Assembly (NCBI GenBank): GCA_015228935.1
Contig: JADGCO010000005.1
Coordinates: forward strand, 13,128-77,127
Reading direction: 5' to 3'
Source: Magnetococcales bacterium
Lineage (GTDB): Bacteria > Pseudomonadota > Magnetococcia > Magnetococcales > DC0425bin3
DNA length: 64,000 nt
Shown here: positions 24,687-62,464 of the stretch, one piece after another
Layout: each line of letters begins with the position of its first letter
How positions within the stretch are numbered: position 1 is the stretch's first letter
Program-made: the position numbers and the translations under genes
Notes under the pieces: generated by a model
Databases searched by the model: none
The model's input: only the letters and a program-made list of their open reading frames with translations
Told to the model about the DNA's origin: nothing

Positions 24687-27600
24687 ATGTCTGCCAATAT
24701 GTTCGTCATGGCCACTATTTTAGTCGTGGACAGCGACCCGAACACTCTATCCTTCCTCTCCAGAACATTGGAGGCCAAAGGTCACGCCGTACACCTGGCT
24801 CCTACCGCCCGTCTGGCCATAGCCTTTCTCCGGACCTCGATGCCGGATCTGGTGATGCTGAACGTCAGGTTGCCGGACATCAATGGCCTCGACGTCTGCG
24901 AGCAGATAAGGTCCATCAAGCCGGACGCCCATGTCCCGATCATTTTCATGAGCGATCACGAGAACCATGACGACAAGGAAAAAGTATTCGATGCCGGCGG
25001 TGTAGACCACGTCACCAAGCCCCTGATTGAAAAAGATGTGCTGGTCCGGGTCTCGACCCACTTGACACTGAGATGGGCACTCCAGGAAATGGGGAAACGG
25101 AATACCCTTCTGGAGGAGCAAATCAAGCGGTGCAAGGAGATCGAGGCAACAGGCAAACAAAGGGAGGAAGCACTGGGTCTCAGTGAAGTCTGCTTCCGTG
25201 GTATTTTCGAGACCGCCATCCACGGCATGGCTCTGGTTTCTCCTGCGGGCAAATTTCTCAAGGTCAACCGTGCCCTGTGCGTTCTGCTTGGTTATGCAGA
25301 AACAGAACTATTGGCCATCGATTTTCAAACCATCATCCACGCCGGTGACCTGGATATCGAAATGGCCTGTGTGCGCCTCATGCTGGCGGGCACGCTGCCA
25401 ACCTACCAAATGGAAAGACGCTATGTTCACAAGGATGGTCACATCATCTGGGTATTGCTGAGCGTCTCCATGACTCGCCTTGAGGGTGGCGACAAGCCGG
25501 TCAATTTCGTATTGCACGTTCAGGACATAACCGACCGGAAAAGCCGCGATGAAAAACTCCTGACCACCAGGAACAAATTGCAAATTCAAGTCGATTGCGT
25601 CAATCGAATCCAGAGCTTGTCCATTGAAGACTCAAATCTGGATACTCTTTTTCAAACCCTTCTCCTTGAAATCCTGAAACTGACCAATAGTGATTACGGT
25701 TTCATCGCCGAAACAAGAATAGATGAAAAAGGTGCAACCTATCTTCAGGCGCTGGCCATTTCCAATATTGCCTGGGACAAGAACAGCAGGGAATATTACG
25801 AGGCCAACGTCTTATCCAGCATCTGTTTTGCCAGAATGCGTGGTTTGCATTTCGCAGTACTGACCAGCGGCGCACCCGTGATTGCCAACGATCCGGTCCA
25901 CGATCCCCGTAGTTGCGGTTTGCCTCCAGACCATCCCGTGCTGGATGCCTTTCTGGGCATGCCCATCAAACGGGGAGATAAAATTTTGGGTGTGTTGGGA
26001 ATAGCCAATCGCCCACACGGCTACAACGCAACCCTGGTGGACGAATACCTGGGACCGGTAATCTTGGCCTGCGCACAAATCATCGAGGGATGCCAGGAAC
26101 GCAGAATAAAAATTGCCAACGAAAATGTTTCGAGCCAGCGCGAAGCCATCCTCACGAGCATGGATGAAGGGGTTATCGTCGTCAATGCCAGGGAAGAGGC
26201 AATTGTTTATGCGAATTTAAAATTCAAAAAAATGTTTCAGTATGAGACTGACGATCTGACCGGAAAAAATTTCAGCATCTTTCACGTGCCTGTAGGCAGG
26301 ACTTCCCGGGAAATATCAACAGAGATTATTGAATCTCTTGACAAGAATGGTGAATGGTCCGGGGAAATCCGCAGCCGGAAAAAAAATGGTTCCACTTTCT
26401 GGTGTCTTGTCACAGTATCGTTATTCGAGCCTCCGCCATTCGGGAAGGAATGGATCTTCATATACAAGGACATCAGTGAAACAAAACGACTTGCAGAAGA
26501 ACTTGATCAGTTTTTTACCATTGTTGACGATCTTTTGTGCATTGCGGATACCGAGGGATGTTTCCAGCGGATCAATCCGGCCTGGGAAAAAGTGTTCGGC
26601 TACTCAATGGCAGATTTGACCGGCAAGTCTCTCATCACGTTCATTCATCCTGAGGATGTCGCAGCTACCGAACAATCACTTGTTGCACAAAACAAACAAA
26701 ATCCAAGGATTCATTTCGTCAACCGCTATCGCTGCAAGGATGGCAGCTACCGCTGGCTGGAGTGGCACTCGGTTCTGGTGGAACAACTTGTCTATGCCAC
26801 CGCACGCGACTTCACCGATCGCAAGGAAACCGAAACCATCATGCGCCAACAGGCAGAGGAGTTGCGCCTGTTCTACGATATGCCCATCATCGGTATGGCC
26901 ATTACCTGCCCCCGTACCAAACGTTGGATTGTGGTCAATAATCAACTTTGCCATATGTTGGGCCACACCAGAGAAGAACTCATCCAACTGACCTGGGCCG
27001 AAATGATTCATCCCCACGACCTGGAAGTCGTCCTGGAGCATTTTCTGGATATCATGCAGGGCAAATCCGATACCTGTGTCATGGATGCAAGATTCCTCCG
27101 CAAAAACGGCCAAATCATGAACATCGTCCTCAATGTGCAAGCCATCCGCAACGATGCCGGCCAAGTGGAACGATTTTTTGCCACATTGCTCAACATCACC
27201 GAACGCAAGCAGACAGAGGATGCCCTGCGGGAAGAATTACTCAAAAATAAAAGCTTTTCCGACATCATGGACAATGTCGAGGCCTACATCTACATCAAAA
27301 ATCGCCAACGAAGATATGTTTATGCAAACCGCCTGGCCCTGGAACTGTTCCAGTGTACCGCCAAAGAGTTGGTCGGCTCAGGGGATGAACGATTTTTTTC
27401 CCCGGGTGCCGGGTTGGAGCAGATTGCACTTGTTGACAAACGGGTATTGGATCATGGTGAAACAACCAAAGAAATTCTTTCGGCGATTCCGCTGAGTCTT
27501 GGCAAGAAAAGGGTTTACCTGGAAGCCAAACGGCCAATTTATGACCAATCCGGAAATATTTGGGGCCTGAGTGGCATTTTTTCCGATATTACCGAGCAGA

Positions 27601-29171: not shown

Positions 29172-29183
29172 GGATGCAGCAAG

Positions 29184-31640: not shown

Positions 31641-32677
31641 ATGATCCGATTCGTGAAATGGGAAACCCCCTGGTGCTGATTGTGGATGATGAATCGTTGC
31701 AACGCCTGCTCATGCGGGAAGCATTGAAGCAGGATGGTTTTCATGTCGCAGACGCAGAAAACGGAATCCAGGCCTGGAATCTGATGCAAAATCATTGTCC
31801 CGATATGGTGATTTCCGATGTGGTGATGCCGGAAATGGATGGTTTTGCCTTATGTGAATCCATTCGCCAACAAGAGAAAATGAAGTACCTGCCAGTTGTC
31901 ATGGTCACCAGTCTGGATGACCCGGCATCCATTGATCGTGGCTATCGAATGGGGGCCACTGATTTTATCACCAAACCCATCAACTGGAGTCTGTTGGGTC
32001 ACCGTGTGCGCCATATTTTACGGGCAGCTCGTACCGCCCAGGCCCTGGCAGAAAGAGAAATTGATCTGATACGCACACGCATGGAGATCATCCGGCGTCT
32101 GGGTCAGGCGGCGGAATATCGCGACAACGAGACCGGCCTCCATATCATGCGAATGAGTCGATATTCTGCTTTATTGGGACAAGCCCTTGGCCTCTCTTCC
32201 TTCGACCAGGATCTGTTGCTCAATGCCTCTCCCATGCATGATGTCGGCAAAATCGGCATTCCCGACAGCATCCTCTTGAAACCGGGAAAACTGTCCAACA
32301 ATGAGTTCGGCGTCATGAAACAGCACACCATCCTGGGGGCAAAACTCCTGGAAAATGATCCCGCTCTGCTGTTGCGCACGGCCCACATGATCGCCCTGAC
32401 CCATCACGAAAAATGGGACGGTCATGGATACCCGTATGGACTGTCAGGAAAGGATATTCCAGTCATGGGTCGTATCTGTAGTCTGGCCGATGTGTTCGAT
32501 GCCTTGACTTCCCATCGCCCTTACAAACAACCCTGGAGCGTGACAGATGCGGTCGCTGAAATCCGGAAATGCTCCGGCACGGCCTTCGACCCCGACATGG
32601 TTCGCGTATTCGTTGACATCATTCCCGAAATAGTGAGAATCAAAGATGCATTCTCCGATAAAAGTCCAATTGAGTGA
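31637..32677 (+). CDS. response regulator with HD-GYP domain (putative c-di-GMP phosphodiesterase)
   Basis: REC has ISDVVMPEMDG. The output domain has HDVGKIGIP and HHEKWDGHGYPYGL. An ATGA overlap links it to the upstream kinase. Confidence 0.9.
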   Translation: MNDPIREMGNPLVLIVDDESLQRLLMREALKQDGFHVADAENGIQAWNLMQNHCPDMVISDVVMPEMDGFALCESIRQQEKMKYLPVVMVTSLDDPASIDRGYRMGATDFITKPINWSLLGHRVRHILRAARTAQALAEREIDLIRTRMEIIRRLGQAAEYRDNETGLHIMRMSRYSALLGQALGLSSFDQDLLLNASPMHDVGKIGIPDSILLKPGKLSNNEFGVMKQHTILGAKLLENDPALLLRTAHMIALTHHEKWDGHGYPYGLSGKDIPVMGRICSLADVFDALTSHRPYKQPWSVTDAVAEIRKCSGTAFDPDMVRVFVDIIPEIVRIKDAFSDKSPIE

Positions 32678-32717
32678 AATATTCAGATCAAATCACAAAC
32701 CGTCTCATCAATCAGCC

Positions 32718-33839
32718 ATGATATCCATTCTGATTGTGGATGATGATCACGTAACACGTATTTTTCTGGAAGAATTGCTCCACCAGGAAGGGTATCAGGT
32801 GGTCCTGGCCACCAACGGCCAGGAAGCACTGGTTCGCCTGGATGAAACATGGTGCGATTTGATTTTCATGGACATCCAAATGCCGGTTATGGACGGATAT
32901 CAGGCTACGCAACTGATCAAAGCCATGGAACAACGAAAAGAATGGTTCATTCCAGTAATTTTTCTTACCTCGGTGCTAACCGATCAGGAACTGGCTCACT
33001 GTCTGGAATGCGGCGGCGATGATTTTCTCACCAAGCCCCCCAACCCCATCATTCTGAAAGCGCGACTCCACGCCTGGTTGCAGCGGGCCGATCTGGTCAA
33101 CAGATTGGCCATGAATCGGCTTGATTTGGAAAATGTAATCCTCAAGATGCGCCAGGACGATCAATTCGACCGACGTGGATTGCGTGTCTTGATGACTCCC
33201 TTGGAAAAAACCAACGGAGATATCGTACTCTCCGCCTGCCGATCTGATGGCGTGCAATATCTCGTGGTGGGAGACTTTACCGGACACGGCTTGGCAGCGG
33301 CCGTTTGTGGGCCCCTGGTGTCCGACATTTTCTATCGTCTGACGTTACAGAATGTTCCGCTGCACACAATCATTTCCAAGATCAACGCAACAATTTTTCG
33401 TAGATTGCCGGTCAATATGTTCATGGCTGCCGCCTTCCTGGAAATGGACCGGGCCAAAAGCATCATACGCATCTGGAATGCTGCCATGCCTGCGGTGATA
33501 CTCATCCGTTCCGGAGAAATCGTTTGCAAATTCCCCCCCACTCTTCCACCCCTGGGCATAGGACAGCATTCCATCCATAACGAATCCTGCGCAGAATATT
33601 CCCTGACAGACAGTGACCGGATTTACCTGTATTCTGATGGAATTGTTGAAACCCGTTCACCTGCATGTGAACTGTTCGGCGAAGAACGATTGGACCGTTT
33701 TTTAAAAGAAATCTTTCCCTCCTGGACAGATTTGCGAACCTTACTCAAGGTGCTTGAATCATTTCGCGCCGGACAGGAACAAACCGATGACATTACCTTG
33801 GTAGAAGCAAGACAGGACCAGGGATGGACAGAAACATGA
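32718..33839 (+). CDS. response regulator with PP2C/SpoIIE-type phosphatase domain
   Basis: REC has FMDIQMPVMDG. The PP2C region has VVGDFTGHGLAAAV, LYSDGIVE and DDITLVEA. Start chosen at the ATG at 32718. Confidence 0.85.
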   Translation: MISILIVDDDHVTRIFLEELLHQEGYQVVLATNGQEALVRLDETWCDLIFMDIQMPVMDGYQATQLIKAMEQRKEWFIPVIFLTSVLTDQELAHCLECGGDDFLTKPPNPIILKARLHAWLQRADLVNRLAMNRLDLENVILKMRQDDQFDRRGLRVLMTPLEKTNGDIVLSACRSDGVQYLVVGDFTGHGLAAAVCGPLVSDIFYRLTLQNVPLHTIISKINATIFRRLPVNMFMAAAFLEMDRAKSIIRIWNAAMPAVILIRSGEIVCKFPPTLPPLGIGQHSIHNESCAEYSLTDSDRIYLYSDGIVETRSPACELFGEERLDRFLKEIFPSWTDLRTLLKVLESFRAGQEQTDDITLVEARQDQGWTET

Positions 33840-33996
33840 TCATCCAGTCTTTCAAATATGTTTCAGGAAGTTCCAGATACCGATATCACAAACATCCGTT
33901 TGAATATCCATACAAATTTCACTGAAATTCAAGGTTATGCGTCGTGACCGTGGCGGGGATTTCGTAGTTTATACCAGACTGTATTCAAAATAAAAG

Positions 33997-34152
33997 GTGA
34001 ATATTCATCCCCCCATTAAAAAACGTTTGAAAAACCGGGATGAAAGTCCAGGAGGAAGCGGCTCTGCCCTTCCTCCTGGCTGGGTTTGGAGTGGATCCCC
34101 AACCCATCTTTAACATGCTTTGGCCATTTTTGGCAGGTTTTGGCGGGGTTGC
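33997..34152 (-). mobile_element. MITE-like element copy (156 bp, inverted orientation)
   Basis: The plus strand begins GTGAATATTCATCCCCCC, which is the right TIR in reverse orientation, and ends GGTTGC. The hairpin is CCAGGAGGAAG-(10 nt)-CTTCCTCCTGG at 34048..34079. Confidence 0.7.
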
Positions 34153-35015
34153 ATACTCCAACCTGTTGATTTGTTTGTATTGCATTTTTTTACTTCGTTT
34201 TGTAGTGCCATAATCTTTTCATGAAGCATTGACACCGTCGGCTTTTGTCATATCCAGGCGGGTATGTACATTCACCGCACACAAACTCGCAACACGGCCA
34301 CGGGTGAATCCTATTTCACTCACCGCTTGGTACGCTCTGAACGTTCAGGCACCAAAGTCAGACAGGTGACCCTCCTGAATCTTGGTCGTCATTTCAGAAT
34401 CGGCCAAGATCAGTAGCCAATGCTGTGAGCGTTACAAATCTGTGGAGCAAACATTTTGCCTCATCATCTCTGCCATGATTGACTGTTTGTGTAAAGTTTC
34501 TCAGATCAAGAACACAAAAAACACAGTCTTCAACAGAATCAAAGGCTTTAATTTTCAGATCACCATTGTTGCCAATCAAGTCATCCTTCCCCGGATTTGT
34601 CCCCAACCCGAAATTGCCCAGCCCAAGTAATATTCTTTCAATTCTTCCTGCTGGATAATTTCCCGGATAGGGATAAAGAACTTCTTATCCCGTCGCGCAT
34701 GATGTACCTGTCATCAGGCCAATCACGTCATCTGCGTCCGTGACATCCCCCCCTGCCTTCTTGACACCATCCATCCATTTGTCCAAATCTGACATTGACA
34801 AGTTCTCCTGATGATAATAAAGCATAAACTTACATACTGCTCAACAATTCAGATTATGTTATTAAACCCTTATAAATCCATGTCAATCATGATTTTCAAA
34901 AAAGCTTGTTTTTTTGCGGAAACAGACTAACAAATTGAAAAAGAATAACTTTTTTTATCCATGAACCTGTACAGCCGAGCCTGCTGAGATTACTGGCACT
35001 CTGTTTCAGGCAACG

Positions 35016-35047
35016 CCAGGAGGAGACGACCAACCGTCTCCTCCTGG
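35016..35047. repeat. solitary 13-bp-stem hairpin related to the MITE core
   Basis: CCAGGAGGAGACG-accaac-CGTCTCCTCCTGG, located ~70 nt downstream of the patatin-like gene stop. Confidence 0.8.
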
Positions 35048-35116
35048 TTTCCTGTTCAAAAACTTCGTACATTGCAACGAAATCTTTCAGAGCTGCAGAG
35101 TGAAAACATCGACCTT

Positions 35117-46599: not shown

Positions 46600-48969
46600 A
46601 TGAAAATGTTCCCACCCCGCTTGATTGTGCTGTTGCTGGTCACCCTGTTCGTGCTGGATGCCCGTCTCTCGCCGGCGCAGCCTGGCACGACCGGGCAACC
46701 CGACAGGCAGGGAGCGCTTTCGCCGACCCTGGAGCAATTTTTGCGCGGTGAAACCGAGCGGGGAGGCACAGTCCTGCGTTTTGACCATGACAGCGACGCA
46801 TTGACTCCGGCAGCCCGGGAACGCCTGGATCAGATTGCGCGTGCCCTGACGGCCAATCCCAAAATCAACATCCATATCGAGGGACATGCCTCGGCCCCTG
46901 GCAGCGATGCCTACAACATGGACCTCTCCCGGCGTCGTGCCGAAGCGGTGGTTCGCTATCTCCAGGAAAACCACCCTCTTCCGGCCTTGCGTTTTTCCAT
47001 GGTGGCCCGGGGAAAACAGGAACCCGCCAATCCGCAGAATACCCCGGAAGCCCAGGCAGAGAATCGCCGGGTCCGGCTGGCCATGCAGATACCCGATCTG
47101 GTTCTGGGTGTGGGCGGCATGGCACCACGTCCCCTGATTTTGACGCCCGATCATCGTTTCGTCATCGGTACCAGGCAGGGGGTTGTGCGTCTCTGGGATC
47201 TGAATGCCGGTTGCACGTACACGGAGTTGCCCAATCCGGGCACCATCGTCAATGCCATGGCCATATCTCCCAACGGTCGCGTTCTGCTGACCGGTGACGA
47301 TGATGCTGTCTTGCGTCTGTGGGATTTGGAAACCGGTGTGGTTCTGCACGATTTTACCGGCCATGCCGGTCCGGTGACCGCCATCACCTTTGCCCACAAA
47401 CTCGGTCTGGAAATGCTCTCCGGTGGGGGGGATGGTTCCGTCAAATTGTGGAATCTGGAGTCAGGGCTGCATCTGCGGAATTATGCGGGACATCAGGGAA
47501 CCGTCACTGCCCTGGCAACCATTCCCGGTGGGCGGCGTTTCCTTTCATCCGGCATGGATGGCAAGGTGGTCTTCTGGGATTTGTCCACCGGTGATGTACT
47601 CCTTGAATTCAAGGGTCATGAGGGGCCTGTTTTTTCCCTGGCCGTATCTCCAGACGGACATTTGGGAGCATCGGGTGGGGCCGACGGGACCATCCGTTTA
47701 TGGAAACTCGACCTGAATCCGAATCTCGCCCAACCTGAACCCCGTATTTTCAGGGCACATGACGGAGCCGTGACCGGCATCGCATTTCTCAAGGGGGGGC
47801 ACCAACTCGTTTCAGTGGGTCATGATGGTACCACCCGGGTCTGGGATGTGGCCACCAATCGCCTGTTACACAAATTTTCTTCTTCTCACCCTGTTCAGTC
47901 CGTGGCCGTGGATGTCACCGGTTCCCTTTACCTGTCCGGTGAGGAAAATGGGGCTGTCCGCATGGCAAGCCTGGAGACTGGATCTGCGGTCAGATCCTTC
48001 ACTTTTGCCGATCCCGGTCCTCCGATTCCCATGGGAAAGGTCTCGGGAGAATCCTGGACCCCGCCCGGCTCGACCACCCCATTCATCTGGGTGGGCGGTG
48101 GCTGTTATCAGCAGGGGTGCTCGCCGGTCATCGGCCAGTGCAGCTTTGACAACCAGCCCGCGCATGAGGTGTGCGTCAAAGGCTTCTGGCTTGCCCGCCA
48201 TGAGGTCACCCAGGCCGAATGGATCCGGACCCTGGACTTCAATCCTTCGAATCATCAGATGGGTGGTGATTATCCGGTGGAGCGGATCTCCTGGATGGCT
48301 GCCCGGCATTATCTTTGCCGTCTGAATGGGGCCGGTCCGGTGCGCTACCGTCTGCCCACCGAAGCCGAGTGGGAATATGCCTGCCGGGGAGGCGGCAAGA
48401 TGGAAGGGGTGCAGAGCAACTACCAGTCTTATCCTGCCTCGACAAGCGATGCTTCCGCCGCCCAGGCCCGGACACCGGAGAGCAGACCCTATGTCACGGA
48501 CGATGCAACGCCCGCAGAGGAGCCTGCTCCGGAAGATTTGACCAAAAAAGAGGTCACCCGGGAGCCTTATCCCCCGGTCACCCAGGGGCGTGCCAATTCA
48601 TTGGGATTGCTCAACATGAACGGCAACGTGTGGGAATGGGTCGCCGACTTTTATGACCGTGATGGTTACACCCGGCTGAATCGCGACAATCCCGTCCATG
48701 CCGGAGATATCGACTACCAGATGTTGAAAAGTGCCTACTCGCGTGTCGAACGTGGTGGTTCCTGGGACGTGGGTGCCCGCCCGGTCGGTTGCCTCTACCG
48801 GGATCATGACTACCCGGGATTCAGGAGCTTTTATCTGGGCATGCGTCTTCTGCTCGTGCCCGACCCGGATACCGGCACAAACACAAACACCCCGACAACG
48901 GCAACGTCGCCACCCATGACCGATACGGGATCGTCTCCCGCTGCAAATGCCGGGAAAGACAAAAACTGA
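46600..48969 (+). CDS. secreted OmpA-like / WD40 beta-propeller / FGE-sulfatase (SUMF1-like) fusion protein
   Basis: Signal peptide is MKMFPPRLIVLLLVTLFVLDARLSPA. The OmpA_C-like region has NIHIEGHASAPGSDAYNMDLSRRRAEAVVRYL. About 7 WD40 units follow (GH.G.V.A..F...L.SGG.DG..+LW). The C-terminus has RLPTEAEWEYACRGG ... NVWEWVADFY ... RGGSW, typical of the FGE-sulfatase fold. Confidence 0.8.
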   Translation: MKMFPPRLIVLLLVTLFVLDARLSPAQPGTTGQPDRQGALSPTLEQFLRGETERGGTVLRFDHDSDALTPAARERLDQIARALTANPKINIHIEGHASAPGSDAYNMDLSRRRAEAVVRYLQENHPLPALRFSMVARGKQEPANPQNTPEAQAENRRVRLAMQIPDLVLGVGGMAPRPLILTPDHRFVIGTRQGVVRLWDLNAGCTYTELPNPGTIVNAMAISPNGRVLLTGDDDAVLRLWDLETGVVLHDFTGHAGPVTAITFAHKLGLEMLSGGGDGSVKLWNLESGLHLRNYAGHQGTVTALATIPGGRRFLSSGMDGKVVFWDLSTGDVLLEFKGHEGPVFSLAVSPDGHLGASGGADGTIRLWKLDLNPNLAQPEPRIFRAHDGAVTGIAFLKGGHQLVSVGHDGTTRVWDVATNRLLHKFSSSHPVQSVAVDVTGSLYLSGEENGAVRMASLETGSAVRSFTFADPGPPIPMGKVSGESWTPPGSTTPFIWVGGGCYQQGCSPVIGQCSFDNQPAHEVCVKGFWLARHEVTQAEWIRTLDFNPSNHQMGGDYPVERISWMAARHYLCRLNGAGPVRYRLPTEAEWEYACRGGGKMEGVQSNYQSYPASTSDASAAQARTPESRPYVTDDATPAEEPAPEDLTKKEVTREPYPPVTQGRANSLGLLNMNGNVWEWVADFYDRDGYTRLNRDNPVHAGDIDYQMLKSAYSRVERGGSWDVGARPVGCLYRDHDYPGFRSFYLGMRLLLVPDPDTGTNTNTPTTATSPPMTDTGSSPAANAGKDKN

Positions 48970-51025: not shown

Positions 51026-51310
51026 ATGAATATTGATTTTTCCCCTATTGATGAAGAATACATCAAGAACAAGGTGAAGTGTGGTGTTTACAGCAGCGCC
51101 ACCGAGCTGGTGTGTGATGCCGTTCGGTATATGCGACATCAGGACGACAGCCTGAGTGCCCGTCTCGATGCCGCGCTGGTGATTGGCGAGCAAGATATTG
51201 CGGCGGGTCGAACCACCATCTATACGCCATCCCTGCGCGAACAGATCGAACAGGATGCCCGACAGCATGCCCGCGACGGTTGGGAGCCTGATCCTGATGT
51301 CGTCCCATAA
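51026..51310 (+). CDS. parD: ParD/CopG-type type II antitoxin
   Basis: 94 aa. YIKNKVKCGVYSSATELVCDAVRYM fits the ribbon-helix-helix ParD family. An AAGGAG ribosome-binding site lies 7 nt upstream. It overlaps the toxin gene by 14 nt. Confidence 0.7.
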   Translation: MNIDFSPIDEEYIKNKVKCGVYSSATELVCDAVRYMRHQDDSLSARLDAALVIGEQDIAAGRTTIYTPSLREQIEQDARQHARDGWEPDPDVVP

Positions 51311-51740: not shown

Positions 51741-53915
51741 ATGAAGGTTCAAATTATGAATCGATTTATTGCTGCTGTGGCCTTGCTGCTTATTCTGGGC
51801 ATGGTTGGATGGGTGTGGTGGCCGACCCTGCTTCCGCCCGTACCGACCCCGGAGAACCAGACCCAGGAACCCCGTCCAGAGTTGCGTTTTGGGCACAACA
51901 TGCCCCAGGAAAGTGCCATGGGCATGGCGGCGGAACGTTTTGCCGCCGGGGTGCTGCTGGCAACGGATGGGGCATTGCCGGTGATGGTCTTTCCTGAAGG
52001 AAAATTGGGAAATGATCTGGAAATGGCGGAGTTGGCCCGCAATGGGGAACTCGATGTGGTCCTCATTCCGACGGCCAAGATGAGTGTGCCGATTCCGGCA
52101 TTACAGTATGCCGACTTGCCATTTTATTTTTCGGCACCCGAGGTTCTCTATCGTTTGCTGGATGGGGAACCCGGTAAATTGCTTCTGGCCAGATTGCAGG
52201 CCATGGATCTGGTGGGAATCACTTTTTGGGGCAATGGATTCAAGCAGTTCACCGCCAACCGGCCCATACATGGTCCGGAAGATCTCCTGAATCTCAAGGT
52301 CAGGGTGATGAAAAGCCGTCTCATCATGGACCAGTTTACCAACCTGGGTGCCCGTCCGATTCCCATTGAATTTCGTGAAACCCGCCAGGCCCTGGCCGAC
52401 AAAGTGGTGGATGCCCAGGAAAATCCCCTGGCTGCCATCGTGGCCATGGGTATCCACCAGGTGCAATCCCATCTGACTCTGAGTCATCATGCCTATCTGG
52501 CCTATGTTCTTGCCATCAGCAAAAAAAGCTTCGGCAAATTGTCGGACAAACAACAGGCCCTGATCCTGGAAACAGGCAGGGGTCTGAGTGCCTTTCAAAG
52601 AGAGGAGACCGTCCGCCAGGAGGAACAATTTCTCCGGAAGATTGAAGATGCCGGCGTCAAGGTCAACCGGCTGACCGAAAAAGAGCGGCAAAAATTTGCC
52701 AGGCAACTGCAACACATTCCTTCACAGTTCGAGGATGTCATTGGCAGCGATATCATGTCCAAGAGCGATGAGCTGCAATACATCTGGCAGTCACCTGCAG
52801 AAAAAAAGCAGAAAATATGGGTGGGATTGGATACGGAGCTTTCCCAGACACCTCCCGGGGCCGGATTGGCCATCAAACAGGGTATGATCCTGGCCATGGA
52901 AGAGATCAATGAAGCTGGTGGGGTGTTGGGGCGCCCCTTGGCCCTGCTGGCCCGGGACAATATGGCCATACCGGGTCGGGGTGAGGACAATTTTCGCTTT
53001 TTGGCCGGACAGGAACATGTGGTGGCCATCGTGGCCGGCATGCACAGCACCGTGGTGATTCCACAATCGGAGTTGGCCGATGCACTCAAGATTCCGCTCT
53101 TGGTACCTTGGGCTGCGGCGGCTGGGGTGGTGGAGCATGCGGAACACCGACCCGAGTATGTTTTCCGTCTGTCAGCCAATGACCGCCTGGTGGGTCCATT
53201 CCTGGTGGATGCGGCCCTGGAAAGAGGCTCGCGGGTGGCCCTGATTCTGGAAAATACGGCCTGGGGCCGGGGAATCCTGCCGTATCTGCAAAACCGCCTG
53301 CAAGAGCGGGGTGTCAACCCTGTCCTGGTCGATTGGCTCAATCGGGGCGAAACCGAATTGACCAGCCATCTGGATGCACTCCAGACCCAAGACGCTGATG
53401 TGGCAGTGCTGGTGGTCAATACCAACGAAGGAATGCAGTGGGTGCGCTCCCTGGTGGCCCGGAAAATGTCCCTGCCCATCATCTCCCATTGGGGAATCAC
53501 CGGCGGCGATTTTTTTGGCAAGACCCGGGACGTTCTGGACAAGGTGGACCTGAGCTTCCTGCAAACTTTTTCCCTGCAAAAAGGGGCAGTGAAGCATATG
53601 CTGGGATTGCAGAACATGTATCAGAATCTTTTTGGCCAGCGCATGCAGGACATCCTGTTGCCCCACTCCGGTATAGCCCATGCCTATGATCTGGTTCATC
53701 TCCTGGCACGGGCCATCCAGAAGGCGGGCAGCACGGAGCGTGCGTCGGTCCGCCAGGCACTGGAGCGGGTGGATACCTATGCCGGGTTGATCAAAACCTA
53801 CCAGACACCCTTTTCTGCCGACAGTCATGATGCCTTGCAACGTGAGGACTATTTCTTGGCCCGTTATGATGGGAACGGCCATATCGTTCCCCTGGCAACC
53901 GGGAGAAGTCCATGA
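51741..53915 (+). CDS. fused double solute-binding protein: DctP (TRAP-type) domain + LivK/Peripla_BP_6 (ABC branched-chain-type) domain
   Basis: It has an N-terminal signal or anchor. Residues ~45-345 are DctP-like ([14 protein letters not shown]...[20 protein letters not shown]...DLPFYF). Residues ~365-724 are LivK-like ([10 protein letters not shown]...[19 protein letters not shown]...AIVAGMHS). The start may be the ATG at 51756. An ATGA overlap links it to the kinase gene. Confidence 0.8.
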
Positions 53916-56900
53916 TCACCCCGTTGCCAACTCCACACAAAAGCCTCAAAAAACGTCTGGTTTGGCAAATCGGTCTGCTTTTTGTTCTGGTTGTTGGCTG
54001 CTCGACGCTGCTGGTGGGTTGGTTGTTCAAGGTCCAGTTGGAAGAGGAGAGCCGCAAGTCCTTGCGGGAAATTGCCTATCGGGAGTTGCAGCGTCTGGAA
54101 GATCGGGTCTCCTACCTCATGGAAACCACTCAGGCCCTGACCAGCAACCATTTCATCGTCAATGGCCTGATCGATCCCGAAGGGAGGCGAACCTATCTGC
54201 CCAAACTGGTGGAGAATTTTGCCAAAAACCGGGATGTGACCGCCTTTGCCATGGTCGATTTTGACGGTCGTCCGGTTTTTGTCCAGGCCCAGGAGCCTCC
54301 GGATTACAACAGCTTTCCACAACTGCGTCAGGCCCTGGCCATGGGGCAATCCAGTCTGTTCATTTCATCCCGTCATAACCGCATGATGCTGGTCGTGCCC
54401 GTCGATTATTACAAAACCACGCTGGGTGCGGTGGTGGTTGAATTTGATTTTCACAATATTCTCCACCGCCTGTTGCAGGTCGAGAAAAACTTTTCCTTCG
54501 AGATTCTGGACGGGCGGGGCACGCTGTTCACTTTTCAGGAGATCAAACAGGAGCAGATGATTTCGGCCCAGGTAGCCAGCCATGGAGCGGCGATGCCCTG
54601 GTTGCACCGGTTGGGTTTGAAACTGCAATTCAGCGTCCCGAAATCGATTCATGAAGCCTCGATTCGCCACGCCCTGTTGCGTTTCGGTTCACTGGGGTTG
54701 TTGTTTGTGTTTCTGGCCGGGGTGATTGCGGTCCGCATTGGCAACAGCATGGCCAAGCCGATTTTGACCCTGTGCGAACGGGTGGCGAGTCAGGATGGCA
54801 TCTCCTGTTCGCCCATTGGTACCGGTGACGAGTTAGAAATCCTGGCGCAAACCTTTGACTGCCAGACCCAGGCCTTGCGTGCCCATCAGGAGGAGTTGGA
54901 GCAACGGGTGGCGGACCGAACCCGGGAGTTGGAACTGGCCCGCGAGGTGGCCGAGGTGGCCAATCGGGGGAAATCCGAATTTCTGGCCAACATGAGTCAC
55001 GAAATTCGCACCCCCATGAATGCCATTATCGGCTTGAGTCATCTCTGTCTGCAAACCCAATTGACCGCCCGCCAGAAGGATTATCTGCGCAAGGTGTACA
55101 ATTCGGCAACCTCTTTGTTGCGTATCATCAATGATATCCTCGATTTTTCCAAGATCGAGGCGGGGCGGCTGGACATGGAGGCCATCGATTTCACCCTGGA
55201 GGAGGTGCTGGGCAATCTGGCCACCATGTTGTCCCTGAAGGCACAGGAAAAAAATCTGGAATTTCTCATGGAAACGGCGGTCGATATTCCACCCAGCATG
55301 GTGGGAGATCCGTTGCGGCTGGGACAGATCCTGCTCAACCTGGCCAACAATGCCGTCAAGTTTACCGAGAAGGGTGAAGTGGCCGTCGTGACCGAACTTC
55401 TCGAAAAAGGGGAGGATTTTGTCCGCCTGCAATTCACCATCCGGGATACGGGCATTGGCATGACCCCGAAACAGCAGGCCGGTTTGTTCCAGGCTTTCAC
55501 CCAGGCGGATGCCTCCACAACCCGGAAATATGGCGGTACCGGACTGGGTTTGGCCATTGCCAAACGGTTGATTGACATGATGGACGGGACCATCCGGGTG
55601 GAGAGTGAACCCGGCCAGGGTACCCGCTGCATCTTCAATGTACGCCTCGGCATTTCCAACCAGCTCGTGGCCAAATCGTTGCTGCCCAGCCCCGATCTGC
55701 ACGGCTTGCGGGTCCTGGTGGTGGACGATAATGAAAGCGCCCGCAATGTATTCACCGAATATTTGACCTCCTTCACGTTCAAGGTGGCAGCGGCCAGGAA
55801 TGCCGGCGAGGCCATGATCGCTGTCCAGGAAGCGGCAGCGGCTGAAAATTTATTCGACCTGATGATTATCGATTACATGATGCCGGATGTGGATGGCATC
55901 ACCCTGGTGGCCAATATGCGCCGGGAGCTGACCCTGAGCCGGTTTCCCGTTGTCATCATGGCCTCGGCCTATGGGGAAGAGAGTCTGGTCAGGCGGGCTG
56001 TCCAGGAGGCCCGGGTGGACGGTTTTCTGGTCAAACCCGTCAATCAGAGTCTGCTGTTCGAATCGATCATGGAAGCCTTTGGGCATGCCGGGAGCGTTGG
56101 TCGGAAAAGTGGTTCGGAACCGGGCCGTCACCGGGATTTCATGGCTGTTCTTTCCGGGGCCAGAATTCTCCTGGTCGAGGACAACGAAATCAACCAGCAG
56201 GTGGCGCGGGAGTTGTTGGAACAGGCCAATATCACCGTGCTGCTGGCCGAGAATGGTCAGGATGCCGTGGAACGGGTATTCCGTGAACCTTTGGACGGCG
56301 TTTTGATGGATGTGCAGATGCCGGTCATGGATGGTCTGACTGCCACCCGGGAAATTCGCAAGGAGGCCCGTTTTGCCGATTTGCCCATTCTGGCCATGAC
56401 GGCCAATGCCATGTCCGGCGACCGGGAACTCTGCCTGGCGGCAGGCATGCAGGGTCATATTGCCAAACCTGTCGATCCCGACGACCTGTTTGCCACCCTG
56501 GCCCGCTGGATCAAGCCCGCCACACCCAAACCCCTGCCGACACCTTCGGGATCGGAACCGGAGGTTCCGGGTGACAGAGCGGATGAAAAACCGCCATCGT
56601 CGAATGGTGAGAAACCGCCCTCGCCGGATGACGAAAAACCCTTCCTGCCACCAATTGCCGGGGTGGATACCGCAGCCGGATTGCAGCGCATGTCCGGAAG
56701 TGTCAAAAGTTATCTCGCGCTGTTGGCCAAATTTCGTCTCAATCAGGGAAGTGCCGAAAGTGCCATTCGGGAAGCTCTCCTGGCCAACGATTGGGCCACA
56801 GCAGAGCGTCTGGCCCATACCCTGAAAGGAGTGGCCCTGACCATCGGAGCCAACACGCTTGGGGAAAAATCCCGCCTTTTGGAGTCTGCCATCCAAAAAC

Positions 56901-57277
56901 AGACCAATCCTGAACAGTGCGCCACTCTGCTCCAGGAGGCAGGGACCGAGTTGACCCGTCTGTTCCAGGTTCTGGACCAGGTCTTGCCAGGGGAAAAAGC
57001 CGCTGATCCGGTGCAGTCTGTCGGGGAAGAGTCCACCGCATCCCTGGCCAGCCGGGATGCCTTGTTGAAAAAAATTGCCGGCCAGTTGGTCATCTACGAT
57101 GCTGCCGTGGAAGAGACCATCCAGATTCTGGGTGGGTTGCCCTTGTCCCGGGAAACCCTGGACCGGGTCAGGATTCTGAAACAACAGGTTGCCCAATATG
57201 ATTATGATGGGGCCATGGCCACAATCCAACAATGTGCCAAAGACCTGCATGTTGATTTGGAGACCGCAAATGCCTGA
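53912..57277 (+). CDS. membrane hybrid sensor histidine kinase (TM - periplasmic domain - TM/HAMP - HisKA - HATPase - REC - REC - Hpt)
   Basis: Two transmembrane segments bracket a ~230-aa periplasmic region. The H-box is [16 protein letters not shown] and the ATP-binding region has [10 protein letters not shown]. The receivers have [11 protein letters not shown] and [11 protein letters not shown]. The Hpt has [12 protein letters not shown]. Confidence 0.9.
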
Positions 57278-60200
57278 CAGTATGACGAAATCCTCCATCC
57301 TCATCGTGGATGATGCCCCGGAAAACCTGGATGTACTCAAGGACGCCCTGATGAATGAATACATGGTGCGTCCGGCACTGAACGGTCCCCTGGCCTTGCG
57401 GTTGGCAGCCATGGATCCCCAGCCCGACCTGATTCTTCTTGATGTCATGATGCCGGACATGGATGGCTATGAGGTGTGCCGCCAGTTGAAGGCCGATTTT
57501 CGCACCCGGGATATTCCGGTTATTTTCGTCACGGCCCGCGCCGAAATCAGGGATGAATTGGAAGGGTTGCAACTGGGTGCCGTCGATTACATCACCAAAC
57601 CTGTCCGTCCCCATATCGTCAGGGCCAGGGTGATGACCCATCTGGCCCTGCGCCATTTCAACCGGGAGATGGAAGAAAAAAATCGTCGCCTCTACGAAAT
57701 CAATGAGCGTCTCAGCAGCAGTCTGGAACAACTCTCTGCCTCCGAAGAGCGTTTTCGGAGTCTGGTCCAGACCATACCGGATATTGTCTACAAGATTGAC
57801 GCCGAAGGTCGCTTCACCTTTTTGAACAAATCCATCGAACGGTTGGGGTATCACCAATCGGATTTGATCGGCAAACATTTTTCCGAAATCATCCACAGTG
57901 CAGACATCCAGGATGCCAGTCTGCAAAAGGTGATTGAAAGGATTGGCAAGGGGGCAATCAATCCCGACCAGAAGGTGTTCGATGAACGACGCACCGGTGT
58001 GCGCATGACGGTTGGCCTGGAAATTCGTCTGAAGACCAAGACCGGGAAAACCGACCATGTGTATGAGCTGCGCAATATCGATACACAGAGCGTCAATGTC
58101 GAGGTCAACAGTACCGGCCTGTACGGGGAAATCGGCAACGATACCTCCTACCGTTCCCGGCAATATGTTGGAACCGTGGGGGTCATTCGCGATATTACGG
58201 ATCGACAAAAAATTCAAAACGCCTTCATGGAGGAGAGAAAACTGCTCCGGCAATTGATCGATGCCGTCCCCTATCCAATATTTTTTCTGGAAAATCATGG
58301 CGAATTGATCTTTTCCAATGAGGCTTTCCAGGCCTTTGTTGCCAGGCCGGGTGACAAGCTGGAAGGAAAGTCCTTTCACGAATTTTGTTGTAACAATGAC
58401 GCTTCCAAAATGGATTCCGTGCTGGCAACCCTGCTCGAGGATGCAGCCGTGCATCGGGTGCGTCAGGAGTTGGAAATAGACTCCGGTGCCGGGACGAAAC
58501 ATGTCATGGATGTCATCCTGCTCAAGTTTCAGAGGACCAACCAGCCGCTGCCGGCCATCATTGGCATCATGGTCGATGTGACGGAACAGCGGGCATCCAT
58601 GGTCAAACTGATCCAGGCCAAAAAAGAAGCCGAAATCATGGCCGCAAATGCCGCCCAGGCCAGTCGGGCCAAGGGGGAGTTTCTGGCCAATATGAGTCAC
58701 GAAATCCGGACCCCGCTCAATGCCGTGACCGGGTTGACCCACCTGTGTCTGCAAACCGAGTTGACCGGACAGCAGCGGGATTATTTGAACAAGGTGTCCC
58801 TCAGTGCCCATGCCCTGCTGCAACTCATCAACGATATCCTGGACTTTTCCAAGATCGAGGCCGGTAAGCTCACCATGGAACATGTCGGTTTTTCCATGGA
58901 GGAACTTCTGGGTGGCATCGTGGCCATACTGGGAGTCAAAAGCCAGGAAAAGGGTTTGGAATTGCTCCTGGATACCAAAAGTACCGTGCCCCGGCATCTG
59001 CGGGGGGATTCCCTGCGCCTGGGACAGGTTTTGATCAATCTGCTGGGCAATGCCATCAAGTTTACGGAAAAGGGGGAAGTCACCCTGACCATCGATATGG
59101 TGGAAGAGAGAAAAGAGGGAAAAGAGAGAGAAGAGAATGTCCTGCTCCAGTTTGTTGTCTGCGATACCGGCATTGGCATGACGGAGGAGCAGGTGAACAA
59201 CCTGTTTCAGGAGTTTTACCAGGGAGATTCCACCATGACCCGCAAATATGGCGGGACGGGTCTGGGTCTGGCAATCAGCAAACGTCTGGTGGAGATGATG
59301 GGAGGAGGCCTGAGTGTTGAAAGTGAACCCGGACAAGGGAGTACGTTCACCTTTACGGCCCGCTTCGACTGGGGGGTCGAGCCGTTGCCGGTGAATTCCC
59401 GAGCCGTGGAACATATTCGTGGTTTGCGGGTGCTGGTTGTGGATGACAACGAGCATGCCCGACAAATCCTGCTCAAACTGTTGGACGTCTTGGGATGCCA
59501 CTCCGTAGGTGTCGAAAGCGGCGAGCTGGCCCTGACAGCCCTGCTGGACGCCGACGCGGATCAAAACTCTTTTGAACTGGTTCTGATGGATTGGAAAATG
59601 CCGGGCATGGATGGTCTGGAAACAATCCGGCAGATCAAAGCGTTGCCATCCCTGCGCAAAATGCCATTGGTAATCATGGTCACCGCATATGGTGAAGGGG
59701 AGTTGTTGACCAGCGCGGGAAGCAAACTTCCGTTGGATGGTTTTTTGATGAAGCCGGTCAATCTCAATTCCTTGCAGAATGCCATTCTGTCTGCCTGTGA
59801 GCGATTGCAGCCCGGATCATGGAGGAGGGATCTCCGGAGCAATCGGAGACTTTTGGCCGGAGTCAGACTGCTCCTGGTCGAGGACAACGAAATCAATCAG
59901 CAGGTGGCACGGGAACTTCTGGAGAAGGTGGGAATCCTGGTGATCACGGCCAACCACGGTCAGGAGGCCATTGACATGCTGAAGCAGGAATCCGTGGATG
60001 GTGTCTTGATGGATCTGCAAATGCCGGTCATGGATGGTTTGACGGCGACCCGGCATATCCGCCTAAACCAGAGTGCCCAAACCTTGCCCATCATTGCCAT
60101 GACAGCCAACGCCATGGCCGGCGACCGGGAAAAGTGTCTGGCCGCCGGCATGAATGATCATATTGCCAAACCGATGGTGCCGGATGAAATGTATGCCACG

Positions 60201-60911
60201 TTGGCCAAATGGCTGCGCGGCAAACCAGGCATTTCTGCCCCGACATCGGCTGCTTCTCCTTCCAGACAAGGGGAGGAAAATGTGCTGCCTTTGCCATCCA
60301 TTCCGGGCGTCGATATGGTCAAAGGAGTACACAATGTGGGCGGTAATGTTCTCCTCTTTCGTGACATTCTGGTCAAGTTCGCCCACAATCAAGGTGGAGC
60401 CGTTCTGAAGATGGATCGGCACTTGGCAACACGTGATTTCAAGGCGTTGGAGCATGCTGCCCATGCCTTGCGGGGGGTCTCGGCCACCATCGGCGCAACA
60501 AAGGTGACAATTCTGGCAGAAAAAATTGAAAAATTGGCCGGGAAACCGGAAAAATACACGGAGATTCCGGAATTGTTGGGTACCATGGCCGGTGAGCTGA
60601 CCCGCATTGTTTCAGCCATTACCATGAATCTGATGGGAGCAGCTCCAGCCATGCCGGCAGATGTGCGAACGGATGTGGTGACAACACCGGAAAATTTGGC
60701 TCCTTTGTTGCGGAAAAGTGTCGAACTCCTGTCGGGCTTTGATCCTTCCGTGGAGCAGGTGGTGGCCGAAATGGCTGCCCTGACCCCTTCCGGTCGGCGT
60801 CGCGACAGGGTGGATGCCATCCGGTTGGCCATGCACCATTACGATTTTGAAAAGTGCCTGACCCTTATTCGCGATTGGGCACAAGAAGAAGGCATCCCTT
60901 TGGAGGGGTAA
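57270..60911 (+). CDS. cytoplasmic hybrid histidine kinase (REC - PAS x2-3 - HisKA - HATPase - REC - REC - Hpt)
   Basis: N-terminal REC has [11 protein letters not shown]...VDYITKP. The H-box is [16 protein letters not shown] and the ATP-binding region has [10 protein letters not shown]. The receivers have [11 protein letters not shown] and [11 protein letters not shown]. The Hpt has [12 protein letters not shown]. Start chosen at the ATG at 57270, which overlaps the upstream stop by 8 nt. Confidence 0.9.
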
Positions 60912-60917
60912 TCTCAC

Positions 60918-62054
60918 GTGTCGCTTACCACAAGCCAAAAACCCATCATCCTGGTTGTTGATGATACCCCCGAAAATATCGATATTCTCAAGGCAGCCCT
61001 GGACGAGAATTATCTGGTCAGACCGGCCAATCGAGGCCGGATTGCCTTGAAGGCGGCCAACATTTTGCCCCGACCCGACCTGATTCTGCTCGACATCATG
61101 ATGCCGGAAATGGATGGCTACGAGGTTTGCCGACTCTTGAAAGCCGATCCGGCCACCCGGGATATTCCCGTCATTTTTGTAACGGGAAAATCCGATGTGG
61201 AAGACGAGGTGGCGGGATTGAGACTGGGCGCTGTGGATTACATCACCAAACCGATCAGCATTCCCATCGTACAGGCAAGGGTCACAACACACCTGGCCTT
61301 GCGCACGGCCAGACAAAAACTGGCTGAACACAATCAACTGTTGCAACATGAACGGGAAATGATCGAAAGCATCATTTTCAAGATGCGCCATGCCGATACA
61401 TTTGATACGCGCCATTTGCGCCATCTGGTCTCACCGGTGGAAATGACGGCCGGGGATATGCTCCTCTCCACCTTCACGCCGGACGGACGCCAGTTGGTCT
61501 TGTTGGGAGATTTTACCGGTCATGGTCTGCCGGCTGCCATGGGGGGTCCCCTGGTTTCATACATTTTTCACAGGTTCTCCAGGCGCGATGCGTCAGGGGA
61601 ACAAATCATGACGGAAATCAATCAGCAGCTCTGTCTGCGTCTGCCCATCGGTATTTTTTTTGCCGCCGCCATGGTGGAAGTAGCCCCGGATCGCACCCGG
61701 GCCACACTCTGGAATGCTGGCATTCCAGATAATCTTCTATTGCGGAAAAGCTCCATCCATGGCCGTTTTTCGTCGGCCATGCCACCCCTGGGTATTGACA
61801 AAAAAGCGGAAATGGCCAAGAATTCCACCAGCATTCTTCTGGAAGAAGAGGATCGACTCTATCTTTTTTCCGATGGGATCATTGAGGCCGGCCCACCCCG
61901 GGGGGGCATGTTTGGCATGGAAAGGTTAGAGGCTTTCCTTGAGAAAGTTTCCTCTGACAAGAGTGATTTGAATGATCTGATCGTATTGCTGAATGATTTT
62001 GTGGGTTCCGGCACACATGAGGATGATATCACGATCGTCGAAATTCTGGTGTAA
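60918..62054 (+). CDS. response regulator with PP2C/SpoIIE-type phosphatase domain (paralog of 32718..33839)
   Basis: GTG start. REC has LLDIMMPEMDG...VDYITKP. The PP2C region has LLGDFTGHGLPAAM, LFSDGIIE and DDITIVEI. Confidence 0.85.
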   Translation: MSLTTSQKPIILVVDDTPENIDILKAALDENYLVRPANRGRIALKAANILPRPDLILLDIMMPEMDGYEVCRLLKADPATRDIPVIFVTGKSDVEDEVAGLRLGAVDYITKPISIPIVQARVTTHLALRTARQKLAEHNQLLQHEREMIESIIFKMRHADTFDTRHLRHLVSPVEMTAGDMLLSTFTPDGRQLVLLGDFTGHGLPAAMGGPLVSYIFHRFSRRDASGEQIMTEINQQLCLRLPIGIFFAAAMVEVAPDRTRATLWNAGIPDNLLLRKSSIHGRFSSAMPPLGIDKKAEMAKNSTSILLEEEDRLYLFSDGIIEAGPPRGGMFGMERLEAFLEKVSSDKSDLNDLIVLLNDFVGSGTHEDDITIVEILV

Positions 62055-62137
62055 AGGAAAATACCATGGAAAAGTGATAGGGATGTTTTTTCCTGGCCCG
62101 CAACTTTTTCTCATGCGTTTCCTGGGAAGAGGGTACA

Positions 62138-62464
62138 ATGATCACAATCGAAGAAAATTCCGGCTTGGTGACCTTGCGGTTACCTGCGGAGTTCAATTAC
62201 AAGTCCCATCGAGAGTTTCGGGAGTGTTATGCGCATCGTTCTCCGAAACAAGCCTATGTGATTGATTTCAGTAATGTTATCAAATTTGACAGTTCTGCCC
62301 TGGGTATGCTCCTTCTGTTGCGGAGCCATTGTGGAGAGAACAAGGCCAATATTCACCTGATCAACTGCAATCCGCATGTCAGGAGAGTCCTGGAAGTGGC
62401 CAGATTTAATGATTTTTTTCGCATCGACACATCCGGGGCACCTGGCTGGTGGCCCGGCAAGTGA
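62138..62464 (+). CDS. STAS-domain anti-sigma-factor antagonist (SpoIIAA/RsbV-like)
   Basis: 108 aa. VIDFSNVIKFDSSALGMLLLL contains the conserved phosphorylatable Ser context (DSSALG). It lies immediately downstream of the REC-PP2C gene. Confidence 0.75.
   Translation: MITIEENSGLVTLRLPAEFNYKSHREFRECYAHRSPKQAYVIDFSNVIKFDSSALGMLLLLRSHCGENKANIHLINCNPHVRRVLEVARFNDFFRIDTSGAPGWWPGK

Follow-up and report, generated by a model that had tools for sequence, protein, structure and literature searches.

Which proteins act on a STAS protein that is encoded at the end of a phosphorelay operon with no Ser kinase in cis? The question is raised by positions 51741-62464 of a 64-kb stretch of Magnetococcales DNA (contig JADGCO010000005.1), the whole of which is referred to here as the window and which derives from a metagenome-assembled genome (MAG). 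This segment, cassette 2, encodes a double solute-binding protein (SBP), two hybrid histidine kinases (HK1 and HK2), a response regulator with a phosphatase domain (REC-PP2C) and a STAS protein. The preferred reading, to which we give a probability of roughly one half, is that a branched phosphorelay gates the dephosphorylation of STAS residue Ser52, with the Ser kinase and the binding partners encoded in trans. The system is a kinase-less form of the HsbR/HsbA scheme, typical of its lineage and assembled from standard parts.

The five open reading frames (ORFs) all lie on the + strand, at the coordinates and with the Pfam domains that the first-pass annotation had given for five co-directional genes:

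51741-53915, + strand: fused double solute-binding protein, 724 aa (Pfam DctP 2.9e-70, Peripla_BP_6 9.2e-32)
53912-57277, + strand: HK1, membrane hybrid ('unorthodox') histidine kinase, 1121 aa (Pfam, motifs, transmembrane prediction)
57270-60911, + strand: HK2, cytoplasmic hybrid kinase, 1213 aa (Pfam, motifs)
60918-62054, + strand: two-domain response regulator and Ser/Thr phosphatase REC-PP2C, 378 aa (Pfam REC, SpoIIE/PP2C 2.7e-34)
62138-62464, + strand: HsbA-family single-domain STAS protein, 108 aa (Pfam STAS 7.5e-14)

The two overlaps reported earlier for the first junctions are both present in the sequence, as ATGA at 53912-53915 between SBP and HK1 and as the 8-nt overlap ATGCCTGA at 57270-57277 between HK1 and HK2. 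A 6-nt gap follows HK2, with the REC-PP2C gene starting at a GTG codon at 60918 and having the Shine-Dalgarno sequence GGAGGGG, and an 83-nt gap separates REC-PP2C from STAS. The NCBI gene model of HK2 begins at 57669 and omits an intact N-terminal REC domain coded from the ATG at 57270, which is the better start. Within the phosphatase gene, about 315 nt 5' of the STAS start, a sigma-70-like match (TTGACA-17-AAGAAT, 10/12) lies at 61795-61823 and, as a consensus match only, could be an internal promoter. The promoter and terminator scan was otherwise uninformative, with terminator-like sites at background level.

The STAS protein contains the motif DSSALG at residues 51-56, with Ser52 as the predicted phospho-acceptor. 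Pseudomonas HsbA shares 40% identity with it (E 2e-26) and has Ser56 at the position of Ser52; the HsbA compared here adjoins a three-domain HsbR and HptB in a flagellar cluster. Residues D51, S52 and A54-L60 are invariant in the HsbA-family alignment, as is the core DSSALGMLLLLR, and named homologs are called 'HptB-dependent secretion and biofilm anti anti-sigma factor'. By sequence, the window STAS belongs to the HsbA family. Its structural model, with a predicted local distance difference test score (pLDDT) of 89, matches RsbV, SpoIIAA and TM1442 at TM-scores of 0.74-0.80 and places Ser52 at the N-terminus of helix 2 (52-64). In HsbA, the phosphorylation state of Ser56 decides between binding to FlgM, by the unphosphorylated form, and binding to HsbD or the HsbR kinase domain, by the phosphorylated form (PMC6482189). 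An MlaB-like reading of a STAS_2 match was rejected, given HsbA membership, no Mla genes nearby and a weak fold match to MlaB. Residues 100-108 (62435-62461) form a tail ending in GWWPGK, modelled with low confidence, which is common only to one other Magnetococcales STAS protein (P0002) and does not occur in the rest of the HsbA family.

The REC-PP2C protein has the receiver residues D15/D16, D59, T89 and K111, and all metal-binding Asp motifs of a PPM/SpoIIE-type PP2C domain are present (D180, GD198FTGHG, SD319G, D369D370IT). An acceptor-Asp receiver joined to a PPM domain with intact motifs, from a gene adjoining an Hpt-bearing hybrid kinase, is the composition of RsbY/RsfR-type regulators. 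The AlphaFold model (pLDDT 87) shows a linker helix of about 44 residues (115-158) between the two domains. The best PDB match is Pseudomonas aeruginosa RssB, a REC-linker-PP2C dimer (structures 3f7a/3eq2, E 2e-25), at TM-scores of 0.46-0.49 and 22-23% identity (3f7a: 23%, 0.46). The long linker helix and the match to the RssB dimer agree with control through the linker, as described for RsbU/RssB-type phosphatases (PMC12143880). The protein falls outside RssB orthology, scoring 55 bits against the cut-off of 700 for NCBIfam NF045505 (RR_RssB_Pseudo), over residues 11-213 only. Homology to the REC-PP2C part of HsbR is clear (32% identity, E 2e-53). The window protein ends 1 residue past the PP2C match, whereas HsbR-like proteins extend for about 185 aa; a kinase hidden Markov model (HMM) finds nothing in any frame of the window, consistent with the earlier description of a phosphatase without a fused kinase domain. 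Magnetococcus sp. DMHC-1 (MAG GCA_039908575.1, contig JAMOAV010000003.1) encodes 100% identical counterparts of both the STAS and the REC-PP2C protein. A second REC-PP2C gene lies elsewhere in the window:

32646-33839, + strand: cassette-1 REC-PP2C paralog (Pfam), final gene of the cassette-1 operon at 24687-33839

The cassette-1 operon encodes a hybrid kinase, a hybrid kinase with Hpt, a REC-HD-GYP protein and this REC-PP2C protein. The two phosphatases share 38% identity over 368 aa (E 3e-76), in line with the paralogy originally proposed for them.

Upstream of the phosphatase, the operon encodes a complete input system. The SBP comprises a hydrophobic N-terminal signal/anchor (residues 9-27), a DctP/TRAP-type domain (50-328) and a Peripla_BP_6/LivK-type domain (374-710), and its score of 203.7 bits against NCBIfam TIGR00787 (dctP) exceeds the cut-off. 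HK1 is arranged as a first transmembrane helix, a periplasmic domain of about 220 aa, a second transmembrane helix, HisKA, HATPase_c, REC, REC and Hpt, with predicted helices at residues 20-38 and 258-276. Its key residues are H363 (HisKA), a G2 box at 542, D654 and D800 (the RECs) and H969 in HTLKG (Hpt). The periplasmic domain is assigned weakly, through a weak dCache_1 match; it is kept beside the fused SBP in locus L010, an orthologous cassette whose SBP has an extra PBP6 domain (DctP-PBP6-PBP6). The best NCBIfam similarities of the kinase are to BarA, TorS and LuxQ, with no equivalog cut-off reached. Fusions of DctP with Peripla_BP_6 form a genuine though small family, which in a set of 1.84 billion representatives amounts to about 55 full-length clusters at 50% identity. 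We know of no characterised member.

HK2 has no predicted transmembrane helix and is arranged as REC (D58), two PAS domains, HisKA (H477), HATPase_c with a G2 box at 662, REC (D774), REC (D915) and Hpt (His in HALRG). Both kinases thus have the HisKA His, the HATPase N and G boxes, the REC Asp and the Hpt His of unorthodox hybrid kinases, and each carries its own fused Hpt, as had been stated. Between the N-terminal REC of HK2 and that of the phosphatase, identity is 62-66% (62% over 134 aa, E 6e-58), confirming the close resemblance pointed out earlier, and the cassette-1 REC is only 37-40% identical to either. More generally, the terminal receivers within a cassette (on phosphatases, REC-HD-GYP and REC-GGDEF proteins and REC-kinase N-termini) are mutually 47-73% identical, against only about 30% identity to the internal receivers of hybrid kinases. 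This pattern in the receiver sequences points to a single Hpt that supplies several outputs in parallel; in this operon, the candidates are the phosphatase and HK2, the latter through its N-terminal REC.

In switches of the RsbY/RsfR type, an RsbW-type kinase/anti-sigma factor and a cognate sigma factor are the completing parts. Pfam scans of all sizeable window ORFs detected neither HATPase_c_2 nor a sigma factor, the only sigma-related match in the window being a sigma-54 activator at 22697-24130. HMMs were built from 40 HsbR kinase domains and from HsbA-family STAS proteins and run in six frames with all filters off; across the whole 64-kb window they returned no further kinase or STAS. A kinase or second STAS hidden in small unannotated ORFs was rejected, both the ORF Pfam scans and the six-frame scans being empty. 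A kinase just beyond the window was likewise rejected, as the next 18 kb of the contig encodes no RsbW-type kinase or sigma factor; this region carries genes for a DUF3551-like protein, RidA, PhoU, an ABC transporter, glycosyltransferases and an LRR-COR protein. A stand-alone kinase beside the genes of relatives was also rejected, the HsbR-kinase HMM giving only weak matches to the ATPase domains of ordinary histidine kinases in 80 loci. When 111 small ORFs neighbouring these genes were tallied by Pfam family, HATPase_c_2 and STAS were not among the best 25 of 60 families, a result that is not airtight. The initial observation that no RsbW/HATPase anti-sigma partner or sigma factor is nearby therefore extends from the window to the 18 kb downstream. 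A literature search for Magnetococcus and anti-sigma antagonist returned nothing.

The 80 loci came from a REC-PP2C profile scan of species-representative genomes, and their genes divide into two architectures. Three-domain, HsbR-like genes (40) have a kinase extension of about 185 aa and occur in Cellvibrio, Gilvimarinus, Nitrospira, Chromatiales and others; an HsbA-like STAS gene lies within 500 bp, immediately upstream, in 39 of the 40. Two-domain genes (44) end at most 11 residues past PP2C, include all those of Magnetococcales and some of Gamma- and Betaproteobacteria, and are without a kinase domain in every case (44/44). The four Asp-containing PPM motifs of the phosphatase are invariant across the alignment of this clade. 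The best 120 database homologs of the window phosphatase, almost all from Magnetococcales, consist of REC and SpoIIE only. The two-domain state throughout these homologs indicates that the kinase-less condition is a property of the clade and not a peculiarity of this locus. Two-domain genes typically stand directly after an Hpt-bearing hybrid kinase, often with REC-HD-GYP or REC-GGDEF adjoining. An HsbA-like STAS gene is nearby in only three of the 44 (window cassette 2, L003 and L033); a fourth pair, L090, was found from the STAS side. The order phosphatase then STAS thus recurs in at least four Magnetococcales genomes, behind different upstream kinases.

A family of short proteins, 370-405 aa, that join a REC domain to a divergent HisKA-type kinase (short REC-HKs) directly adjoins two-domain REC-PP2C or STAS genes (L010:8663-9880, L015:2468-3598, L016:11125-12297, L033:11759-12931, L090:6457-7566). 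These proteins have the H-box HDLKGPL, an Asp-to-Asn change in G1 and RECs 47-73% identical to that of the neighbouring phosphatase. The L033 copy, with His replaced by Thr and a degenerate G2 box, is a pseudo-kinase, and the window has no short REC-HK gene. The solo-REC proteins beside STAS or PP2C genes were considered as TciR-like REC-RsbW kinases and rejected, being divergent HisKA-type, degenerate or fitted with an unassigned domain. A response regulator at L036:3508-4647, immediately after a two-domain REC-PP2C gene, has a C-terminal domain of about 260 aa without Pfam match and a REC 47% identical to the phosphatase REC.

L003 has the cassette-1 composition (kinase, kinase, REC-HD-GYP, REC-PP2C), with a phosphatase 69% identical to that of window cassette 1, and this phosphatase is directly followed, after 47 nt, by a STAS gene whose product is 61% identical to the window STAS. 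L010, composed like cassette 2, shares with it the periplasmic kinase domain and encodes a fused DctP-PBP6(-PBP6) protein. The L010 phosphatase and that of window cassette 2 are 63% identical, yet L010 has no STAS. L090 combines a third phosphatase subfamily with a STAS 58% identical to that of the window, the two genes overlapping by 4 nt. DMHC-1 has at least three REC-PP2C paralogs and, among the matches listed, one HsbA-like STAS. The attachment of orthologous STAS genes to different REC-PP2C subfamilies points to a single STAS as hub for several paralogs. From these sequence relationships, one STAS probably serves several REC-PP2C proteins, cassette 1 included, and a second input to the same STAS through the cassette-1 protein is possible. 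The simplest reading of the gene arrangements suggests that the STAS gene moved between cassette ends. In Bacillus, several phosphatases converge on RsbV, a parallel to the proposed hub.

Two observations touch these paralogs. Directly after the cassette-1 phosphatase, about 1.2 kb at 33840-35116 has a lower G+C of about 0.49 and no convincing ORF or domain match; at the matching position L003 holds STAS-REC-Hpt-REC, and the segment may be a deletion or replacement scar. A third DMHC-1 paralog (L089, contig JAMOAV010000025.1) follows a dCache hybrid kinase with Hpt, and MSHA-type pilus genes (secretin, TPR protein, MshE ATPase) lie immediately upstream.

The proposed mechanism can be followed from the outside inwards. 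The exported double SBP would bind one or two small solutes, dock on the periplasmic domain of HK1 and set HK1 autophosphorylation, a coupling suggested by the gene overlap and by the conserved SBP and kinase pairing in L010. Phosphate in HK1 would pass from His363 to a REC Asp and on to Hpt His969, and HK2 would sense a cytoplasmic cue through its PAS domains and run its own His-Asp-His relay. The Hpt domains would then phosphorylate two near-identical terminal receivers, that of the phosphatase and the N-terminal REC of HK2, so that HK1 may both drive the output and modulate HK2; the two shared targets are proposed because these receivers are 62-66% identical to each other and only about 30% identical to the internal ones. 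As in RsbU/RssB-type dimers, the long linker helix would transmit REC phosphorylation to the PP2C domain and so raise or lower its activity. The phosphatase would take the phosphate off STAS Ser52, and a kinase encoded elsewhere in the genome would restore it. By analogy with HsbA, the phosphorylated and unphosphorylated STAS forms would bind different partners, an FlgM-like anti-sigma-28 factor and/or a cyclic di-GMP (c-di-GMP) enzyme.

Several lines of evidence support this reading. All five proteins have intact domains and motifs, and the STAS protein is of the HsbA family with an invariant equivalent of Ser56. The REC-PP2C protein is homologous to the corresponding part of HsbR, and its best structural match forms REC-linker-PP2C dimers. 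Phosphatase and STAS adjacency recurs in at least four genomes, two-domain genes almost always follow an Hpt-bearing kinase, and the terminal receivers resemble one another. L003, of the cassette-1 type, carries STAS while L010, of the cassette-2 type, does not. Finally, RsfR/RsfB offers a precedent in which a two-domain REC-PP2C protein has a STAS substrate and the kinase is a separate protein. Weighing against it are the gene order, with PP2C before STAS, the reverse of hsbA-hsbR; the locus context, with no flagellar or FlgM genes; and the negative search, with no Ser kinase in the window, the 18 kb downstream or about 43 two-domain loci. STAS is in cis for only three of the 44 two-domain genes, and HsbA-like STAS proteins are rare in Magnetococcales (5 clusters) against more than 100 REC-PP2C clusters, so the STAS protein may not be a general substrate of the two-domain clade.

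A rival reading is an incidental adjacency. The clade would then act mainly on other phosphoproteins, and the STAS gene would be a passenger, with regulation of its own, at the end of the operon. The 41 of 44 two-domain genes without an HsbA-like STAS within about 10 kb fit such a passenger, as do the 83-nt gap and the sigma-70-like site ahead of STAS and the STAS genes of L002 and L008, which stand beside kinases or Hpt without any PP2C. Against this, the arrangement is found in four genomes and with three REC-PP2C subfamilies, as closely spaced as the 47-nt gap of L003 and the 4-nt overlap of L090; the nearest characterised homologs, HsbR and HsbA, are an enzyme-substrate pair; and 39 of the 40 three-domain relatives have STAS within 500 bp. 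We regard an incidental adjacency as unlikely.

A broader proposal, speculative and also improbable in our estimate, is that HsbR function has been dismantled in Magnetococcales. Many cassettes would end in a kinase-less REC-PP2C protein and converge on one or a few HsbA-like STAS hubs, which would be reset by an atypical phosphorelay-wired kinase (for example a GHKL domain of the histidine kinase type placed after a matching REC, as in the short REC-HKs or HK2) or would work without a phosphorylation cycle, giving a partner switch without an RsbW-type component.

Absence of a phosphorylation cycle is the core of a further alternative, in which REC-PP2C and STAS form an RssB/RssC-like adaptor complex, the STAS enables binding of a target such as a sigma factor, and no kinase is needed. 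The rssB-rssC operon of Pseudomonadaceae is indeed a REC-PP2C and STAS pair without a kinase, RssB needs RssC for RpoS binding, P. aeruginosa RssB is the best structural match of the window phosphatase, and no relative has a kinase in cis. The window protein is nevertheless not an RssB ortholog, by bit score and by the low identity and TM-score to 3f7a, its STAS groups with HsbA and keeps an invariant phospho-Ser motif, and the invariance of the PP2C metal-binding motifs across the clade argues for real catalysis on a phospho-substrate. These points make an adaptor without a Ser phosphorylation cycle quite doubtful.

The remaining alternative, phosphorylation of Ser52 by a Hanks-type Ser/Thr kinase or a GHKL domain of the histidine kinase type under the same phosphorelay, is distinctly unlikely. 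The candidates would be the short REC-HKs of relatives and, in the window, HK2, whose REC matches that of the phosphatase ('split HsbR'). STAS proteins normally bind GHKL ATPase domains, and short REC-HKs with matching receivers lie directly beside REC-PP2C or STAS in all five loci listed above. Four of the five, however, have a normal H-box His and resemble ordinary His kinases, the L033 copy, without the His and the G2 box, cannot be a kinase, the window has no such gene, and HK2 has the full set of hybrid-kinase domains and a relay of its own. To our knowledge there is no precedent for a HisKA-type kinase phosphorylating a STAS Ser. For the Hanks-type variant, PknD phosphorylates a STAS homolog in Mycobacterium tuberculosis (PMC1847690).

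Among known systems, the closest parallel to a branched relay acting on STAS Ser52 is HptB-HsbR-HsbA(-HsbD) of Pseudomonas aeruginosa and P. putida, together with CrsR-CrsA of Shewanella, in which hybrid kinases act through an Hpt on the REC of a PP2C regulator and then on an HsbA-family STAS. The first-pass annotation had proposed a layout of this type, and the likeness is upheld by the phospho-Ser position of the STAS protein and the 32% identity to HsbR; relatives of the window locus also often have parallel c-di-GMP outputs (REC-HD-GYP, REC-GGDEF). The three differences listed with that proposal all hold, although the missing kinase, presented as a feature of this locus, is the rule in a large two-domain clade. 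HsbR has three domains (REC, PP2C and a GHKL kinase/anti-sigma domain), and the window phosphatase lacks the third. Hpt is fused to both window kinases, whereas Pseudomonas HptB stands alone. The window order is PP2C then STAS, against hsbA-hsbR-hptB in Pseudomonas, and the window operon encodes an extracytoplasmic SBP input. The neighbours of the operon are toxin-antitoxin, SulP, RidA and PhoU genes, with no flagellar cluster, unlike L004 and L091.

In RsfS/RsfR-RsfB of M. smegmatis and RsbK/RsbY-RsbV of Bacillus cereus, a cognate histidine kinase phosphorylates a REC-PP2C protein, which in turn removes phosphate from a single-domain STAS, and the Ser kinase is a separate protein. The RsbW-type kinase/anti-sigma and the sigma factor are known in those systems, whereas neither was found in the window, over the next 18 kb or at the loci of sampled relatives. 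The window differs further in its proteobacterial HsbA-family STAS and in its input, a multi-step relay with two hybrid kinases. The two-domain REC-PP2C protein RsfR, which acts on a STAS while the kinase is another protein, has been characterised (PMC10950880), as has the RssB/RssC operon, with a two-domain REC-PP2C regulator and a STAS (PMC12143880). The locus is accordingly less unusual than the first-pass annotation implied, since a two-domain REC-PP2C protein acting on STAS is already characterised elsewhere. RssB-RssC of Pseudomonadaceae shares with the window pair the operon of REC-PP2C (active-site residues present) and STAS without a kinase, and provides the closest solved structure; it differs in being an RpoS-degradation adaptor, in having no hybrid kinases or SBP encoded with it and in not being orthologous.

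On the input side, the coupling of a periplasmic binding protein gene to a HisKA-HATPase-REC-Hpt membrane kinase resembles the TorT/TorS, LuxP/LuxQ and BarA/ArcB-type relays. TorT and LuxP act as binding-protein partners of the kinases TorS and LuxQ. The window system departs from these in the fusion of DctP with a type-I periplasmic binding protein and in the tandem RECs of the kinase.

If the preferred reading is true, an HsbA-type switch, which in Pseudomonas governs the decision between motility and biofilm, could be driven by modular kinase-less phosphatases on different sensory relays, one of them with an extracytoplasmic solute input. For magnetotactic cocci, this would connect nutrient sensing with a choice concerning motility or c-di-GMP, a connection that can be tested. 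The analysis also defines a large uncharacterised two-domain clade, without the domain that makes HsbR a self-contained switch, which KEGG-style annotation lumps with HsbR. The gain is incremental, given known families and the comparable REC-PP2C/STAS pairs already studied, unless the kinase proves atypical or absent.

Around the operon, a type II toxin-antitoxin pair, with a ParD-like antitoxin (51029-51310) and a ParE-like toxin (to 51599), is placed between a divergent SulP gene and the operon, and 3' of the STAS gene lie convergent genes for the DUF3551-like protein, RidA and PhoU. Further upstream, 46600-48969 encodes a 789-aa protein with an unusual fusion of OmpA, a WD40 beta-propeller and an FGE-sulfatase-type domain. 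About 7 kb past the window end, on the - strand, L001:16954-19296 encodes the 780-aa LRR-COR (Roco-like) protein.

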